From Minisyncoccota bacterium (lineage in GTDB: Bacteria; Patescibacteriota; Minisyncoccia; Phycocordibacterales; JABAAK01): DNA of 64,000 nucleotides. This document shows positions 48,695-63,997 of the stretch, piece after piece. The position numbers were made by a program, and so were the translations under genes. The DNA lies in contig OZ244939.1 in NCBI GenBank assembly GCA_965222235.1, positions 94,041 to 158,040 of the forward strand. Reading direction: 5' to 3'. The notes beneath the pieces were generated by a model, which was not told where the DNA came from, did not search any database, and saw nothing but the letters and a program-made list of their open reading frames with translations. Within the stretch, counting starts at the first letter, position 1, and every line of letters begins with the position of its first letter.

Positions 48695-48768
48695 AGTATA
48701 CAGGACATATATTCGCTATACACGGCACGATTGATTGTGCAGGTCTCGGGATATACAATACCTGTACA

Positions 48769-56920: not shown

Positions 56921-57898
56921 CTACATTCTCTTTTCAACGATGAAACCCTTCTCCGTGCCGATAATGCCGATGCCGTACACCTCCTGTGCGATGCCCTGAT
57001 GTAGCAGTTTTTTGGCAATCTGATTGACAGTCGCTCCGGATCCGATCATATCGTCAATAATGAGAACCCGGGTGAACTTCTCTTCATACAGCGGGATATG
57101 GAATGTGAGGTCGGCATATTTCAGCCGCTCCGCATCAGTTGACAGATATTTCTGCTGCTGCGGAACCTCTCCCCCCTGTTTCTCTATCGGTATGACCGGC
57201 AGTGAAAAAGCACCTCCAAAGCTCCGGGAAAACGAGTGCATAATCTGAAAATCCCTTGAGGCAGAGTGAGGAACAATCACCACCGCCTCAATGTCTTTGT
57301 CGCGGATATACGCGCGAAGGACGGGGAGAAAATCTGACAGCAGCTGCCTGCCGTACCTCTCTGCCTGCGGTGTGTTGTCCTTGGCGATGCCGAGAAAAAT
57401 TGATTCTTTGGTTTTTCCGAAATCAGGCAGCGCATACGGAAATGCAAACACGGCCTCCTGCAAAAACATTTTTTCTCCGGTTTTTTCAGAAAAAGACCGT
57501 ATTTTTTCCGTTGAAGAAAAAATGTTTCCCTGTACCGCGCTGACAGCCTCCTCATACAGGCTGACTTTTTCCTGCAGAGAATGTTTTTTTAAACTGCCGT
57601 CAGACCACCGTAAAAAGGCTTCGGCACCCGTGTACATATCACCGATGGTGTCCCTGTAGATAAAGTGTTTTTCAATAAGGGGGCTTCGTATGGTCGGGTC
57701 GGGTCGGCGCACCATGCGGTAGCGAACGCGCGGTGCTCTGCCTAATTTCTCCACATGCCCGCTCTCGGTCAGCTCCTTCAGATACCTATGCACCAACTGC
57801 GGACTGACATTCAGCAGGCGCACCAAATCACGCGGCGCACAGTCCTGCTTCTCCAGCATATCCACCAATGCCTGCCTTTTACTGGTTGTATGTTTCAT
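56921..57898 (-). CDS. winged-HTH + phosphoribosyltransferase-domain regulator (PurR-like architecture)
   Basis: N-terminal wHTH (LVRLLNVSPQLVHRYLKELTESGHVEK). C-terminal PRPP-binding motif VLIIDDMIGSGATV. Confidence 0.55.
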   Translation of the reverse strand: MKHTTSKRQALVDMLEKQDCAPRDLVRLLNVSPQLVHRYLKELTESGHVEKLGRAPRVRYRMVRRPDPTIRSPLIEKHFIYRDTIGDMYTGAEAFLRWSDGSLKKHSLQEKVSLYEEAVSAVQGNIFSSTEKIRSFSEKTGEKMFLQEAVFAFPYALPDFGKTKESIFLGIAKDNTPQAERYGRQLLSDFLPVLRAYIRDKDIEAVVIVPHSASRDFQIMHSFSRSFGGAFSLPVIPIEKQGGEVPQQQKYLSTDAERLKYADLTFHIPLYEEKFTRVLIIDDMIGSGATVNQIAKKLLHQGIAQEVYGIGIIGTEKGFIVEKRM

Positions 57899-57935
57899 GA
57901 TGGTATGGTATCACATATATAAACAAATATACAGA

Positions 57936-58195
57936 CTATGGAATAAGGATATTAAGATAAAAGTCCACTATATACAGGATATTTTTTAGTTTATAGCACA
58001 CCATGTACTATAAACAACCATAGAGCCTATGAAATAAGGATATTGAGATAAAAGTCCACTATATACAGGATATTTTTTGGTTTATAGCACACCGTGTACT
58101 ATAAACAACCATAGAGCCTATGAAATAAGGATATTGAGATAAAAGTCCACTATATACAGGATATTTTTTGGTTGTATGGCACATCATACATGCTA
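57936..58195. repeat. tandem repeat, 91-bp unit x about 2.8 copies, each with a 25-bp near-palindrome TTTATAGCACAC-C-GTGTACTATAAA
   Basis: Units start at 57936, 58027 and 58118 with 2-4 mismatches between copies. The third copy degenerates after about 70 bp. Confidence 0.85.
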
Positions 58196-58284
58196 CACCG
58201 TCATATACTCCAGTATCGTAAAGAATGGTGAGAGAGATCTGCACACGACCGGGGTACATCCCGATCGTGTGTACACATAACATC

Positions 58285-58300
58285 TTTCTCTTGCTCCGAC
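58285..58300 (-). other. 16S precursor trailer half of a 16-bp leader/trailer processing stem (partner at 59883..59898)
   Basis: The + strand 58285-58300 TTTCTCTTGCTCCGAC is the exact reverse complement of + strand 59883-59898 GTCGGAGCAAGAGAAA. Confidence 0.6.
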
Positions 58301-58399
58301 TGCCTCCGGTTACGCATATCCGGAAAAGCGGGTACATGTTTCGGACGAGGTACCATTGTCCTGCTCACAAATAAATGAGAGCAATTGACTTCCTCCTTG

Positions 58400-59875
58400 C
58401 GGAGGCAGTTTCCTTGAATTATTCCACGAACAGCTTCCGCTACCCGTGCCTTGTTACGCCTTAGCCCTTGTTATTGAATTTACCTTAGACCCGTATGAAA
58501 CGGGGCGTCGGGTACCCTCAACTTCCTTGACTTGGCGGGCGGTGAGTACAAGACTCGAGAACGTATTCACCGCAGCGTGCTGATCTGCGATTACTAGCGA
58601 TTTCAACTTCATGAGGTCAAATTGCAGACCTCAATCCGGACTGAGACTACTTTTATGAGGATTTGCTCCGGCTTGCGCCTTGGCTTCCCGTTGTAGCAGC
58701 CATTGTATCATGCGTGCAGCCCGAGGCATCGAGGGACATGCGGACCTGGCGTCATCCTCTCCTTCCTCCCTCGTGAGAGGGCAGTCTCGTCTGACAACGT
58801 ATAACAGACGACGAGGGTTGCGTTCGTTACCCCACTTAAGGGAACAGTTCAAACCACGAACTGACGACGGCCATGCATCACCTGCCTACCCGCCCGAAGG
58901 AAATACCCCTTTCAGGGTATCGTCGTGTAGGTTTCTAGCCTCGGTAAGGTTTGTCGCTTAGCATCGAATTAAGCCGCGTGATCCACCGCTTGTGCGAGTC
59001 CCCGTCTATTCCTTTGAGTTTTAAGCTTGCGCTCGTACTACCCAGGCGGCTTGCTTAACGCGTTAGCTTCGCCTCATGAGGGTCAATGCCTCAAAAAGCT
59101 AGCAAGCATCGTTTAGGGCGTGGACTACTGGGGTATCTAATCCCATTCGCTACCCACGCTTTCGTCTCTGAGTGTCAGGAGCAGACCAGTGTGCTGCCTT
59201 CGCATTTGGTGTTCCCCACAGTATCAACGGATTTCACCCCTACTCTGTGAGTTCCACACACCTCTTCTGTCCTCAAGCACTGCCGTTTCGTATGCGGTTT
59301 TCCGGTTGAGCCGGAAGATTTAACATACGACTAACAGCGCCACCTACAGACGCTTTACGCCCAGTGATTCCGGGTAACGCTCGGGGCTTCTGTATTACCG
59401 CTCCTGCTGGCACAGAATTAGGAGCCCCTTATTCATACGGTACCGTCAATAAACTTCTTCCCGTATAAAAGGTGTTTACGCGCCGAAACGCTTCATCCAC
59501 CACGCGGCGTCGCTCCGTCAGGCTTTCGCCCATTGCGGAATATTCTCGACTGCGGCCTCCCGTAGGAGTATGGCCCGTGTCTCAGTGCCATCGGTGGGGG
59601 TCAGGCTCTCACCTCCCCTACGCGTCATAGCCTTGGTACGCCATTACCGTACCAACAAGCTGATGCGAAGCAGGCCCATCCCTAAGCGATAAATCTTTAC
59701 TCCGTAGAGACTATCGGGAATTAGCACATCTTTCGATGCGTTATGCCCGACTTAGGGGTAGATTCCTACCTGTTACTACCTCGTTTGCCACTGGGTCCGA
59801 AGACCCCGTTCGACTTGCATGCCCTATCCACGCCGCCAGCGTTCACCCTGAGCTAGGATCAAACTCTAAAAAAAG
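58400..59875 (-). rRNA. rrs: 16S ribosomal RNA, not linked to a 23S gene
   Basis: 5' end: reverse complement AGAGTTTGATCCTAGCTCAGGGTGAACGCTGGCGGCGTGG at about 59867. 515F/806R/1390-type conserved blocks. The 3' end is ...GTAACAAGG...GGAAACTGCCTCC near 58401. Confidence 0.9.
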
Positions 59876-60142
59876 AAAAACGGTCGGAGCAAGAGAAACA
59901 TGTCATATGTCTCCCCTGCCGTTCCTTACTCTATAGTGTACATAGGTTATGTATATATGTATACATAATAATTGTAAAAGATCATACGCCAACGCGTACT
60001 TAATCAGTATACGCTGAAACAGTGCCTTAGGTCAACTGTTTGATAGAATTGTGTGGGGATAAAATCAAAAGACCGCGGGTGTTAGTTGAAGTGTTTCATC
60101 ATATCTTCCGCAGAAGTAAACCCCCAGAGACATCCCTCCCCA

Positions 60143-63100
60143 TCAAAACGCATCCTGTATGAAGCTGGGACGGACGGACGGAAGGACTGCCGGAGGGGTG
60201 AGCAGGACGGAGCCGGTGTCTGAAGTGGGGAAGGTGTAGCCGCGGGGTTCAGCAGGCGGTGTGTACTCTTCTATGACCTCTACGGTCGGGATGATGACCC
60301 TCGGTGTTTCAGGAGGGGTGAGGATGAAGACCGGGGCGGTGCGTCTGGTTACGGCGGGGACGGGGAAACGGATCTCCTGCTGTACAACGGTCGGCGGTGT
60401 TTCTTCCTCCGGGGGTGCCTGCCGTTTGGCGAGGAGTTCCTGAATACGGGCACTGATGACTGCTATCTGCTGTTTGATGGCGGCGATGAGTTTTCGGCGC
60501 ACGGTGTCGGCAACGATGTCCACGGATTCTCCCACCGGTTCAATGACGGGGACGAGGATGCCGGTTTCGCTCTGAGGGTCGGCGGTGTCAGTGTTGAATC
60601 TGAAGAGTCCGATACCTCCGCCTCCTCCTCCGCCGCCACCTCCGCCTCCTCCGCCGCCGCTTCTGACACCGGTGATGGGTACGTGGACGGAGGTGTTCTC
60701 ATCCTCCTTCTGAGCGTTGCCCACGGCATCAACGGCGATGAGATCACATGTTGATGCGTCGTAGGTTTCCTGAGGAATGGTGATGTCATATGTATACCGT
60801 ACATCGTCCTTCTGTGCACTGTCTGTGAATGCCGGCGAACGGGGGAATGCGGCACAGGCTCCTGTGAAGGACAGGTATATCGCCTCATTGCCCTTCATGG
60901 TCGGGTGGTTGTTGCGGTCGACAAATGCCGACACTTTTACTATTGTCCCCTGTGTGCTGATGAGGAACCGTTTCACCGCCGGCGCCGCACTGTCCACAAA
61001 GAAGAGGTAGGAGGTGCTGCCTGCGGTGCTGTTGCCTGCGGGATCTGCAACCGTCGGCAGGGTGATGTTGCGGATACCGGAGGAAGCACCGTCAGGTACC
61101 GCATGATTGATAGTTGCGGGGAAGGTGCTGAGATCATGATTGGTGGTGCCGATGGTTGCTCGCAGCGGGTTTGCCTCACTCACCGCTTTCCCGTTCACCC
61201 ATACCGGGTTAGCGTCTGTCAGGGCAAGATTGACCTGTACCGTGCCGCCGGGTCTCGCCGCATTCTGTTTCGGTGTGACGGTATATATCGGAGCTGTACG
61301 GTCTACGGTGATGGGTGTGTTCGTCACAGGACCGCTGAGAGAGACGGTGAACTCTTCGCCGACGGTGAAGATGCGCGTCAACAGTGCGCTGTTGCCAGCA
61401 GCAGGACTATGGTCCACATCAAAACTCAGGTACTCCCTGTTGAGCCCTTGACGTGCGTCATCAATAGCGGTGGTGAAGGTATCCGCCCCCTTGCGCAGGG
61501 TAATGTCATACCCCGCAAGGACTGCCTTCTCCTCCACGTTGTTGCCGTTTTCATCCGTGATACGGAGGAAAAGGTCAAGATTAGTATTGTCATAATACAA
61601 ATCAGCGAGGGTATATGTTGTGCCGCCTGCCGTGAAGGTGGCGGGGGCGACGGATCCCACCGCCGATATGAGATTTAATCCGTAAAATGTTTCTGCGTAT
61701 ATTCCTTCACCTTCAATGAACTGCCCACTCGCCGCCACTCCGGTATATATTGTCTCCCTTCCCTGCACTACCAGGGTGGTCTCAATGGTGATGGGGTTGC
61801 CTGCTCTGTCGGTCGCGGAAAAGGACAGGGTGCCGGTTCCCTCCTCAGCGGTGTCAGTCAGGGTCAGAATATCACAGCTCAGTGCGTTGTCTGTATCGGT
61901 CATGCAGTTTGTAAATGATTCACCGGCGAAGGTGAGGGTGATGTCTGTGAGTGTTTCGCTTGCGGTGAGAGCACCGAGGGTGAGTGTGTCTCCTTCTGTG
62001 GCATATGCCGGGTTGGTGTTGCCTGAGGTGAGCATGAGGGTGCCGAGGAGTGCCGGGGCGGTGTCGTCAACCGTCACCGTGCCGATCCTGACTACTGAGC
62101 CGTGTGTGCCGGAGCGGTCAATGTCTATGGATGCGTAGAGGTGGAGATCGTCGGTTGTTTCGGGGACGGAGAGTGTGGTGCTGAGTGTACCGGTCCCGTC
62201 GGCTATTGTTGTCAGGGGGGTGATTCCTTCACGTTCCGTGTCACTTAACTGACCGTCGCTGTCTGCGTCAACCGTGCTTTCAACGAGGTAGAAGGCGATC
62301 TCGGCTTCCGGTGCTGACTGAGCGGTGAGTGCGCGGGAGCCTGAACGGACAATGTGGTTCATACCGTCTGAGGTGCCGTCGGTGAATCGGAGGCCTCCCG
62401 CCGTTTCAATGGCGTCTTCGGTGTGTTTCGCCGCCCTGTTCCCCGCCTCGTCAGTGAAGATGAAACAGATGCCGATTGCGGTATCGGCTGGTGTAGCACC
62501 CGTGCCCGGGGTGTAGGCGGTGCCGGTTGTGCCGGTTGAGCAGGATGCCTGTGCGGTGTTGTCCGCCCACAGAGCGGTGGCGGCCTCATCAGCGACTGCA
62601 CGGTAGTCAGATCCTGACTTAATGATGATGATGGTCGGTGCTTCGGTGTCCAGCGTGTAGGGTACCGCCTCGGAGCAGACTCTGTTGCCTGCGGTGTCTT
62701 CCGCACTGCCGTAGAATGTATATGCCCCGTCGGTGTCAAGGGTGTGTGCGGTGATGTCCGTTGCTGTGTCAGATGACCCCAGTGTCACCTCGGTGCCTGC
62801 CTCAACGGAGCAGGTATTGTCGGTGTAAAGACCGATGAGAGCGTTTGTTTCCGTACTCATCGTGAAGACTGGCTCTTCAACATTGCCGGGGGTGCCGGTC
62901 GGTGTCTTCAGCACAAATGCTGTCGTCGGATTACTCACATCAACCGTCACCTGTGTCATGCTGACCGGTGTACTCAATTCACTGTCGCCCAGTGCAGTGT
63001 TGGTGATGTATCCGCGGAGATCAACAGCGGTTGGTTCCTGCGGCGGGGCTATGATGGAGGCGGTGAACTGTCCGCCGACGGTGAAGATATTTTGGAAGAG

Positions 63101-63997
63101 TGACGACATATCACCAGTAGGATAAAAGCCGATATATGGGATTGAGCTAAAGAATGTAGTACCATCGTCAACATTCAGTGTGACGGTGTCGTCCCCCTTG
63201 GTCAACACGAGCGTGTGCCCGGCAAAGACCGTTTTCTCTTTTATGTCAGCACCGTCGGCTGTGTCAATCTGTATATGAAATTCATTTGGAGATTCATTCG
63301 TATTGAAATACAAGTTCTTAATCGTGTAGGCAGTGCCGTCTGCGGTGAATGTTACGGGGCTGATTGATCCGCCGGTGGCAATGATACCACTGGTTACTGA
63401 AGAAAATCCCATGGCTTCCCCTGCATTACCAGATGTCACCGTCCCGGTATATATCGTTGACGTCTCAGAAGCAGCCACCGGTGAACTCAATATTTTTGAA
63501 GTGGTGAACTGTCCGTTCCCGTCGGTGGTGACGGTCTCTTCATATGCGTTATCCCACGATTCACCGGCCTGTTTACCCTGCACCCGCACGGTTGAGTCCG
63601 GCAGCGTCATACCCGCATAACGGGGGTTTGGATTGTTGGTGATACTGTCTGTTTCGCTTCTGCCGGCATCGTCTTCGGTGAGCACACCGCTGTCGGTGAT
63701 GAGATCGGTTGCCTCATTCTTCACATGCACGGCGGAGCGGTTGCCGTAGCCGTCAGTCGCCATGACACAGGCATTGATGTTGTTGGTGCGCTGCACGATT
63801 GACAGAGGCGTGTAGTCAACGCCCGCATCAACAGGAACACAGGTGCCGCTGTTGGGATAGTCAAACTGTTTATAGGGCTCGGCGATCGGTCCGTCGTTAC
63901 GCGAGACCGCCGTCACCAGATAGGTGTCGCCTGACACCGATCCCCTGAGAGAGAGAGTGAATTGCGTGTCGGCGGTGGAGAAGAAATTATGAAACAA
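60143..63997 (-). CDS. giant extracellular surface protein (N-terminus beyond window) with Ig-like repeats, 15-Gly linker and Pro-rich C-terminal tail
   Basis: At least 1284 aa in one frame. T/S/G/A-rich beta repeats. GGGGGGGGGGGGGGG at 60615-60660. Coiled segment and PPxxP tail. Confidence 0.5.
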   Translation of the reverse strand: MFHNFFSTADTQFTLSLRGSVSGDTYLVTAVSRNDGPIAEPYKQFDYPNSGTCVPVDAGVDYTPLSIVQRTNNINACVMATDGYGNRSAVHVKNEATDLITDSGVLTEDDAGRSETDSITNNPNPRYAGMTLPDSTVRVQGKQAGESWDNAYEETVTTDGNGQFTTSKILSSPVAASETSTIYTGTVTSGNAGEAMGFSSVTSGIIATGGSISPVTFTADGTAYTIKNLYFNTNESPNEFHIQIDTADGADIKEKTVFAGHTLVLTKGDDTVTLNVDDGTTFFSSIPYIGFYPTGDMSSLFQNIFTVGGQFTASIIAPPQEPTAVDLRGYITNTALGDSELSTPVSMTQVTVDVSNPTTAFVLKTPTGTPGNVEEPVFTMSTETNALIGLYTDNTCSVEAGTEVTLGSSDTATDITAHTLDTDGAYTFYGSAEDTAGNRVCSEAVPYTLDTEAPTIIIIKSGSDYRAVADEAATALWADNTAQASCSTGTTGTAYTPGTGATPADTAIGICFIFTDEAGNRAAKHTEDAIETAGGLRFTDGTSDGMNHIVRSGSRALTAQSAPEAEIAFYLVESTVDADSDGQLSDTEREGITPLTTIADGTGTLSTTLSVPETTDDLHLYASIDIDRSGTHGSVVRIGTVTVDDTAPALLGTLMLTSGNTNPAYATEGDTLTLGALTASETLTDITLTFAGESFTNCMTDTDNALSCDILTLTDTAEEGTGTLSFSATDRAGNPITIETTLVVQGRETIYTGVAASGQFIEGEGIYAETFYGLNLISAVGSVAPATFTAGGTTYTLADLYYDNTNLDLFLRITDENGNNVEEKAVLAGYDITLRKGADTFTTAIDDARQGLNREYLSFDVDHSPAAGNSALLTRIFTVGEEFTVSLSGPVTNTPITVDRTAPIYTVTPKQNAARPGGTVQVNLALTDANPVWVNGKAVSEANPLRATIGTTNHDLSTFPATINHAVPDGASSGIRNITLPTVADPAGNSTAGSTSYLFFVDSAAPAVKRFLISTQGTIVKVSAFVDRNNHPTMKGNEAIYLSFTGACAAFPRSPAFTDSAQKDDVRYTYDITIPQETYDASTCDLIAVDAVGNAQKEDENTSVHVPITGVRSGGGGGGGGGGGGGGGIGLFRFNTDTADPQSETGILVPVIEPVGESVDIVADTVRRKLIAAIKQQIAVISARIQELLAKRQAPPEEETPPTVVQQEIRFPVPAVTRRTAPVFILTPPETPRVIIPTVEVIEEYTPPAEPRGYTFPTSDTGSVLLTPPAVLPSVRPSFIQDAF
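60615..60660 (-). repeat. (GGN)15 simple-sequence repeat encoding a poly-Gly linker
   Basis: + strand cctccgcctcctcctccgccgccacctccgcctcctccgccgccgc. Confidence 0.8.

Follow-up and report, generated by a model that had tools for sequence, protein, structure and literature searches.

A 91-bp tandem array as the putative autoregulatory operator region of a winged helix-turn-helix phosphoribosyltransferase gene in a Minisyncoccota bacterium

A 64,000-nucleotide stretch of a Minisyncoccota bacterium genome (GenBank assembly GCA_965222235.1, contig OZ244939.1, positions 94,041 to 158,040; hereafter, the window) contains a tandem array of palindrome-bearing 91-bp repeats between a 16S rRNA gene and a gene for a protein with winged helix-turn-helix (wHTH) and phosphoribosyltransferase (PRTase) domains. 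What the repeats do, and to which of the two flanking genes they belong, is the question that this locus raises. A preliminary description made from the letters alone had offered three possible answers: an operator array for autoregulation of the wHTH-PRTase gene, a termination or roadblock region insulating rRNA read-through, and a small mobile repeat. Comparison with related loci strongly supports the first of these. The array is probably the cis-regulatory region of the wHTH-PRTase gene, made up of three tandem ∼90-bp operator-plus-promoter modules and putatively subject to autoregulation by the gene's own wHTH domain.

Tandem Repeats Finder (TRF) placed the array at 57918-58187 (period 91, 3.0 copies, 93% matches, no indels, score 461), by far the strongest tandem array in the window. 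It lies on the sense (minus) strand between the 16S gene (58412-59874) and the wHTH-PRTase gene (56921-57898), both of which are encoded on the minus strand, and its G+C content is ∼30%, compared with ∼52% around it. A repeat search resolved three head-to-tail copies with 100, 91, and 75% identity, respectively, to the reference copy, and the second and third of these (U2 and U3) are identical over their first 72 nt. The array and the gene that follows it are as listed here.

57918-58190, minus strand: 91-bp array of three units, delimited by TRF, repeat search, composition, and matches to a unit profile hidden Markov model (HMM).
57918-58008: U1, the gene-proximal unit.
58009-58099: U2.
58100-58190: U3, the last ∼19 nt of which have diverged.
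56921-57898, minus strand: wHTH-PRTase gene, encoding 325 residues, with the wHTH at residues ∼6-62 followed by a middle domain and a ComF-like type I PRTase domain.

The unit starts given previously (57936, 58027, and 58118) describe the same array 18 nt out of phase, and the 2.8 copies counted from them end at ∼58190; the end coordinate of 58310 had taken in 120 nt of unrepeated 16S trailer. Read in the TRF phase, the array is separated from the ATG at 57898 by 19 nt rather than 38 bp. The units are 91 bp long and head-to-tail without spacers, in agreement with the original view that they do not form a clustered regularly interspaced short palindromic repeat (CRISPR) array. Two Logan contigs from two other sequencing runs (L001 and L002) carry an identical gene, and both begin at the first 31-mer holding a base specific to the proximal copy. 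Because this is the de Bruijn branch expected between repeat variants, the array is not an artefact of one assembly, and the 91-bp repeat is confirmed as real. Two open reading frames (ORFs) that overlap the array and trailer on the minus strand (58059-58337 and 58201-58368) have no family match and are taken as spurious.

Within the units, a palindrome (O) and two further boxes (A and B) were delimited.

58080-58106, minus strand: operator O3, the 27-bp palindrome GTTTATAGTACACGGTGTGCTATAAAC, with 10-nt arms, one G.T mismatch, and a 7-nt centre.
57989-58015: operator O2, the O3 palindrome with one further transition, GTTTATAGTACATGGTGTGCTATAAAC, from palindrome and motif scans.
57899-57924, minus strand: O1 remnant, a left half-site GTTTATATA (57924-57916) followed by GTGATACCATACCATC.
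57965-57982, minus strand, with copies at 58056-58073 and 58147-58164: box A, ATATCCTGTATATAGTGG, which is CCTGTAAATACAGG-like in relatives.
57935-57952, minus strand, with copies at 58026-58043 and 58117-58134 (ATATCCTTATTTCATAGG): box B, ATATCCTTATTCCATAGT, which reads CCTTATTTTATAGGG across species.

Alignment of 15 upstream regions revealed that the O1 remnant occupies the place where relatives have an O1 overlapping TGnTATACT. A 25-bp near-palindrome is exact at 58081-58105 and has one mismatch at 57990-58014, with a chance expectation of 0.00 (100 shuffles). It had been ascribed to every unit, but there are only these two copies, the third position (∼58172-58196) being degenerate. Likewise, the junction palindrome CATAGAGCCTATG was found at 58019-58031 and 58110-58122 and not in each unit as had been stated, the proximal copy having TATACAGACTATG instead. 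No second O site, half-site cluster, or box B was detected elsewhere in the window by blastn, the unit HMM, or a motif scan; box A has one further weak match in the window, at 48708 with 4 mismatches, which is taken as chance.

To which of its neighbors the array belongs is answered by its distribution. The closest named relatives of the window protein are from Candidatus Kaiserbacteria (Parcubacteria, candidate phyla radiation (CPR)), at 43% identity. Relatives comprised 11 proteins of 39-50% identity on contigs from ENA and Logan, corresponding to 14 genes when adjacent paralogs are counted (L083-L089, L122-L124, and L126), and together with the window gene these form a Kaiserbacteria-like CPR clade of 15 genes. 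Two to three tandem units were present upstream of all 15. TRF itself reported an array in 11 of the 14 relative genes, with 1.9-2.9 copies and a period that is 87-91 bp in ten (recorded values being 91, 90, 91, 87, 88, 89, 90, 88, and 90 bp) and 101 bp in the single array of one paralog group. The ∼200 nt that precede the start codon could be aligned globally across all loci and revealed a fixed order of O, an A/T run, box A, box B, a T-run, and the next O. A 16S gene adjoins none of the 14 relative genes, whose neighbors all differ. Given that every gene of the clade has the array and none of the relatives adjoins a 16S gene, the array goes with the wHTH-PRTase gene and not with rRNA. Consistent with this strict association, the unit HMM searched against the window and 126 loci matched essentially only clade upstream regions, the only others being three weak matches (E 0.01-0.7), which fell on O-like sites immediately before the genes of three distant homologues.

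At two of the related loci (L085 3001-5237 and L123 699-4224), two or three wHTH-PRTase paralogs lie side by side, each with its own array; one divergent pair and one frameshifted copy are among them. Relatives are often found among mobile or defence-type genes: the neighbors in L084, L086, L087, L122, and L124 include Fic, RusA, a YafQ toxin, an IS110 transposase, NYN, a PIF1 helicase, DUF3800, and giant FG-GAP proteins. The window gene has housekeeping neighbors (rpsB, tsf, and NT5C).

The O consensus across the clade is GTTTAyAGTA-N7-TACTrTAAAC (27 bp). Its arms are paired in 90.8% of cells, and 5 of the 10 arm pairs have changed on both sides, whereas only 30-45% of cells pair when the register is slid by 1-3 columns. 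The covariation of the whole three-helix structure tested was reached by 0 of 500 shuffles. RNAalifold supported the O helix only, with no consensus hairpin at box B, and boxes A and B read as palindromes or hairpins are ∼70% paired (box A in 69% of cells) with slight covariation. As judged from these alignments, the palindromic symmetry of O is under selection. Box B is among the parts of the unit most conserved in sequence across species and lies just upstream of the −35 hexamer in relatives.

The palindrome, in contrast to the array, extends well beyond the CPR clade. The wHTH-PRTase family comprises at least 427 genome loci, and its distant homologues (∼30% identity) are found in Bacteroidota, WWE3, Shapirobacteria, Leptospiraceae, Bdellovibrionales, Proteobacteria, and others. 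TRF applied to the upstream regions of 80 genome loci reported an array at the Kaiserbacteria locus only, so the array is clade-specific rather than family-wide. A palindrome with 9-nt arms, no more than one mismatch, and a 7-11-nt spacer was nevertheless present in the 150 nt upstream of 76 of 87 distant homologues, compared with 10.7% of 3324 control windows from the same loci. Most of these palindromes are O-like, with GTTTAyAGT or TTTGACTAT arms, and the related forms include GTTTACAGT-N9-ACTGTAAAC, GTTTATAGT-N9-ACTATAAAC, and TTTGACTAT-N9-ATAGTCAAA. Across 788 kb of related loci, 87 O-class sites fall between −400 and +60 relative to the start of a family gene and 4 fall elsewhere. In the single-operator relatives examined, O spans the promoter spacer, the −10 element, and the start and ends 1-10 nt before the ATG, which is the position of a classical autorepressor site. 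Two Bacteroidota loci have O-class palindromes toward the 3′ end of the family gene as well (L024 2991-3017 and L037 4948-4974), ∼950 nt past its start, and these may control a downstream gene.

Alignment of the wHTH regions, sorted by operator type, revealed that the recognition helix varies with the operator. The residue that follows the conserved histidine of the recognition helix is Arg or Lys at all 32 loci whose half-site starts with G (GTTxA...) and Ile, Leu, Val, or His at 28 of the 29 whose half-site does not. Where half-site positions 7-9 read TAT or TGT, position 2 of the helix is Lys in 33 of 34 loci; where they read AGT or another triplet, it is a residue other than Lys in 27 of 27. 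Five hybrid loci combine Lys and Arg/Lys with GTTTAC-TAT or GTTTAC-TGT, and because they exist, the two correlations are separable. The window protein, with the recognition helix SPQLVHRYL and the operator arm GTTTATAGT, fits this code. Such a pattern would follow if every protein recognizes the palindrome that precedes its own gene.

The position of the promoter was examined in the same upstream regions. Of the 14 relatives' loci scanned, 12 have exactly one TATACT, TATAGT, or TATATT that starts 12-16 nt ahead of the annotated ATG, preceded by TG in 9 cases; the annotated starts of the two exceptions are doubtful. This −10 element is always in the gene-proximal partial unit, inside the proximal O, and often has TTGATT or TTGACA 17 nt upstream; the 101-bp-unit paralog group has TTGACA-17-TATATT or TATACT. 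The upstream units of relatives carry better palindromes and lack the −35 and −10 hexamers. The possibility that each unit serves as its own promoter was ruled out on this ground, since the upstream units do not have the −35/−10 consensus of the proximal one. In relatives, TGnTATACT lies only 6-10 nt from the ATG, and the mRNAs are therefore probably leaderless or nearly so.

The position scan that finds TATACT, TATAGT, or TATATT in relatives is not matched in the window. The best candidate there, with 9 of 12 consensus matches in a promoter scan, is the following.

57926-57955, minus strand: predicted promoter, −35 TTAATA at 57955-57950, an 18-nt spacer, and TG plus TATATT at 57933-57926.

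This candidate is present only in the proximal unit, where it is made by the substitutions that separate U1 from U2 and U3. By consensus match, transcription would start at ∼57919, directly over the half-site.

An autoregulatory operator of a dimeric HTH protein is expected to overlap or adjoin the promoter of the regulator's gene, to be conserved together with that gene, and to vary in step with the recognition helix, and the O palindrome shows all three features. From these patterns we infer a scheme that says how the protein would contact the DNA, in which direction it would regulate, how the units would cooperate, and what ligand would be sensed. A dimer of the downstream-encoded protein is predicted to bind the 27-bp palindrome O of each complete unit. 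The promoter in use would lie in the gene-proximal partial unit, where an O site or a half-site covers the −10 element and the start, and protein bound at this proximal site would occlude RNA polymerase, resulting in autorepression. The upstream sites O2 and O3, 91 and 182 bp away, may be auxiliary high-affinity sites that load or stabilize the protein at the weak proximal site through cooperative binding, looping, or wrapping. Through its conserved PRPP (phosphoribosyl pyrophosphate) loop, the PRTase domain is probably a sensor of PRPP or a nucleotide that would tune DNA binding, as in Bacillus subtilis PurR.

Several observations weigh against this scheme. In the window, the canonical −10 position is degraded to GATACC and the proximal site is only a half-site, so it is a consensus match alone that would place the promoter ∼20 nt upstream of the canonical position. 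A period of 87-91 bp corresponds to ∼8.5 turns at 10.5 bp per turn, which disfavors simple in-phase looping. The sequence conservation of boxes A and B finds no explanation in this operator model. In the clade, the mismatches between O arms are without exception G.T on the sense strand, never A.C; with four independent cases (window 57989-58106, L087, and L126; roughly P = 0.06), this is a weak hint of selection for a sense-strand RNA hairpin. The Fisher P of ∼1e−16 for the helix-operator counts ignores phylogeny and so overstates their independence. The search of the source genome for O covered 64 kb of 641 kb (∼10%). Finally, copies are far more alike within an array (78-99% identity) than between species (72% mean column identity), as recent duplication without selection for multiplicity would also produce.

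The last point leads to the reading of the array as a near-neutral tandem duplication, arising by slippage or unequal exchange, in which function resides in the proximal copy alone, the upstream copies being evolutionary by-products still able, perhaps, to bind protein. The identity of U2 and U3 over 72 nt, the higher identity within arrays, the variation in copy number, and the ability of distant homologues to manage with a single operator are all consistent with it. Against it, the array is retained in 15 of 15 clade genes, side-by-side paralogs included, despite protein identities of only 39-50%, and its period is held at 87-91 bp. The upstream copies, moreover, keep better palindromes than the proximal copy, yet without its −35/−10 consensus. 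Since the distal palindromes are the better ones while the promoter hexamers are proximal only, a division of labor is indicated rather than decay, and we consider near-neutral duplication unlikely.

It is improbable that the array insulates the wHTH-PRTase gene against 16S read-through, with its units acting as terminators or protein roadblocks. The array is co-directional with a 16S gene that no 23S gene follows and lies ∼220 nt downstream of it, box B and the T-run of relatives (CCCTTATTTTATAGGGTTTTATTTT) resemble a weak hairpin followed by a U-tract, and protein at three operators could incidentally block elongation. However, the related loci all have an array and none has an adjoining rRNA gene. 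A scan for intrinsic terminators (a GC-rich hairpin plus a U-tract) found none within 57918-58190, the T-run that follows box B in the window is poor (CTCTATGGTTGTTTAT), and, as described above, box B forms no consensus hairpin. The earlier suggestion of a terminator or roadblock is thus unsupported as a primary role.

The units might instead be transcribed, as a long 5′ leader or as tandem small RNAs, with O hairpins bound by the PRTase domain. Some PRTase-fold proteins, e.g. PyrR, do bind RNA. The sense strand folds better than shuffled sequence (z = −3.4, compared with −2.2 for the antisense strand), and the four independent arm mismatches would all be G.U in the sense-strand RNA. This reading is nonetheless quite improbable given where transcription would begin: the relatives' promoter is at the gene-proximal end of the array, 6-10 nt from the ATG, which puts the array upstream of the start site; O overlaps the −10 element and start in single-operator relatives; and the upstream units have no promoter consensus. 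The array has no Rfam match, a search of 57800-60200 with permissive thresholds returning the 16S RNA only. It is also the wHTH recognition helix, not the PRTase domain, that co-varies with O, and the fold of the palindrome scores the same whether it is transcribed or not.

That the array, although AT-rich, repetitive, palindromic, and intergenic, is a dispersed mobile or generic repeat of the miniature inverted-repeat transposable element kind, as the preliminary description had also considered, or an iteron or origin-type element unrelated to the neighboring gene, is highly improbable, since its position by one gene family is conserved, blastn and the HMM found no second copy in the window and no copy exists in the 788 kb of related loci outside the gene's upstream region, exact-pattern scans returned no match to the conserved unit core among JGI metagenome contigs and none to the palindrome in IMG/VR, and gene orientation does not switch at the array.

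The nature of the encoded protein bears on the autoregulatory reading. Pfam places MarR_2, HTH_5, and HTH_24 at residues 6-53 and Pribosyltran at 233-304, and the PRPP-loop motif DDxxGSGA (Asp-282, Asp-283, Gly-286, Ser-287, Gly-288, and Ala-289) is invariant in the family alignment and intact in the window protein. In an AlphaFold model built from 15 sequences (predicted local distance difference test score, 87), the top full-length Foldseek matches were B. subtilis PurR structures (1o57, 1p4a, and 7rmw; probability 0.97-1.0, with high root-mean-square deviation), and the best rigid match of the catalytic-type domain was Helicobacter pylori ComF (7p0h; 3.6 Å root-mean-square deviation over 175 columns). 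The best profile matches of the PRTase part in PADLOC were PsyrT (E = 1.8e−11), the retron PRTase_III-A (8e−6), and ShosT (2e−5); TIGR00201 comF matched with E = 6e−7 and 29.5 bits against a cut-off of 233.55, and all of these matches are far below the family thresholds. A protein-guided scan of JGI metagenomes returned only distant homologues (≤30% identity). Database names of family members include “ComF family protein” (a Pedobacter homologue in RefSeq/UniRef), “DeoR/GlpR family transcriptional regulator,” and “wHTH transcriptional regulator,” and no description of the wHTH-PRTase family, its operator, or the 91-bp repeat was found in the literature.

The nearest worked example is B. subtilis PurR, and by analogy the system may work like a PurR-type ligand-sensing autorepressor with multiple operators. 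Binding by PurR takes place upstream of its own operon, PRPP acts as an inducer, and (p)ppGpp works against PRPP; the inverted PurBoxes, two 14-bp boxes with a central CGAA and a 16-17-bp spacer, each bind a dimer, and up to six dimers occupy extended DNA (PMC8789054). The PurR-like architecture proposed at the outset holds as to domain order, in that a winged helix at the N terminus precedes an effector domain of the type I PRTase fold whose PRPP loop is intact, and both systems have inverted repeats just upstream of or over the promoter. The protein is, however, not a PurR family member. PurR chains in the PDB match only residues 235-322, in the PRT domain, with E = 0.076-0.079; no PurR model was among the best 25 of 33 NCBIfam matches; the window protein has an extra middle domain of ∼120 residues; and ComF, PsyrT, and ShosT are closer than PurR to its PRTase domain. 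The operator is likewise different, being GTTTAyAGT-N9-ACTrTAAAC and not CGAA-centred PurBoxes. PurR sites are not ∼90-bp tandem modules, and no regulon beyond the gene itself was seen in the window and related loci scanned.

ComF/ComFC (GntX) is the best structural match at the domain level and has lent its name to the Pedobacter homologue, but the match falls far short of the comF cut-off, the N terminus of the window protein is a wHTH, and no comFA or other competence gene is a neighbor, the neighbors being NT5C, rpsB, tsf, and the 16S gene. ComF is not known to possess a self-operator. The ShosTA and PsyrTA PRTase toxins, which give the best profile matches of the PRTase domain, resemble only that part of the protein; no ShosA/DprA-like gene or PsyrA was present at any locus, and the neighbors differ everywhere. 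Retron III-A effectors also combine PRTase-like and winged-helix domains (PMC7736814), in keeping with the profile match to PRTase_III-A. The domain order of the III-A3 to III-A5 effectors is nevertheless reversed relative to the window protein, no reverse transcriptase was in any neighbor list, and Rfam found no noncoding RNA other than 16S in 57800-60200.

Repressors that regulate themselves through several operators, such as lambda CI at OR1-3 and the antitoxins of type II systems, have several palindromes upstream of or over their own promoter, and in having the weakest site at the promoter and stronger auxiliary sites upstream the present array resembles them. It differs in that a whole ∼90-bp module, including two further conserved boxes, is repeated head-to-tail, in being homogenized within genomes, and in having a period conserved across species. 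An autoregulatory operator region is thus well known as a kind; what is new is the clade-wide array of two to three ∼90-bp modules together with an operator code that crosses phyla.

Taken jointly, the observations could describe an uncharacterized cross-phylum family of self-operated wHTH-PRTase proteins with a two-residue, two-position code, the CPR array forming a wrapped multi-dimer nucleoprotein switch and the protein possibly being a toxic effector; this fuller picture is tentative and rather doubtful. The ShosT and PsyrT toxins are the nearest to the PRTase domain, and for this reason the protein may be an effector that attacks the nucleotide pool and keeps its own gene tightly repressed (a one-gene defence or addiction module); it would then not be a metabolic regulator.

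Nothing in these findings overturns expectation. They turn an anonymous repeat into a testable model, with a predicted 27-bp operator, a cognate protein, and two specificity-determining residues, and so provide a regulator-operator pair where almost no regulation has been characterized. Members of the family are common among Bacteroidota and candidate-phyla bacteria, where current annotation goes no further than “ComF family” or “wHTH regulator.” CPR bacteria cannot be grown by themselves, and their promoters and regulators have hardly been studied; for them, the aligned arrays bring out promoter structure as well. If the ∼90-bp multiplicity is functional, the array would be an unusual case of a whole control region kept in tandem by concerted evolution.

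The 16S gene and its trailer were examined separately.

58412-59874, minus strand: 16S rRNA gene (Rfam, 1366 bits).
58191-58411, minus strand: unrepeated 16S trailer, containing a processing-stem strand (58281-58300), a 12-bp GC-rich hairpin (58242-58271), and a segment of ∼110 nt.

Rfam detected no 23S or 5S gene in the window, and no tRNA lies in 57800-58450. In the absence of 23S, 5S, and spacer tRNAs from the window, this is an unlinked rRNA gene. Its processing stem is real, the leader strand at 59883-59902 pairing with the trailer strand at 58281-58300 at 19 of 20 positions, but the array is not immediately downstream of it as first described, ∼90 nt lying between the two. The ∼110 nt between the Rfam 3′ end (58412) and the stem strand are closed by a perfect 10-bp helix (58400-58409 with 58299-58308) and include a CCUCC-GCAA-GGAGG hairpin at ∼58390-58405 (minus strand). 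This segment could be a 3′ extension, an intervening sequence, or a displaced and sequestered anti-Shine-Dalgarno element. At 58390-58425 (minus strand), the 16S 3′ tail reads GGAAUAAUUCAAGG instead of the GGAUCACCUCCUUU of the bacterial model, so there is no anti-Shine-Dalgarno sequence at the canonical place.

Shine-Dalgarno-like motifs were found upstream of 5 of 49 crudely called ORFs, against a background of 10.7%, and in several of the 49, TATACT or a near match to it is found no more than ∼20 nt ahead of the start. These counts suggest that leaderless mRNAs may be widespread in the window genome. The proximity of TGnTATACT to the start codon, as described above for relatives, likewise implies leaderless mRNAs in a genome whose 16S rRNA is without the usual anti-Shine-Dalgarno tail. 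Motifs like TGTATACT occur just upstream of many ORFs in the window genome. Just upstream of the 16S promoter region, the ORF at 60143-63997 (minus strand) encodes a 1284-residue surface-type protein with Big_13 domains, in which a CCT/CCG triplet repeat at 60614-60660 specifies a run of 16 glycine residues.

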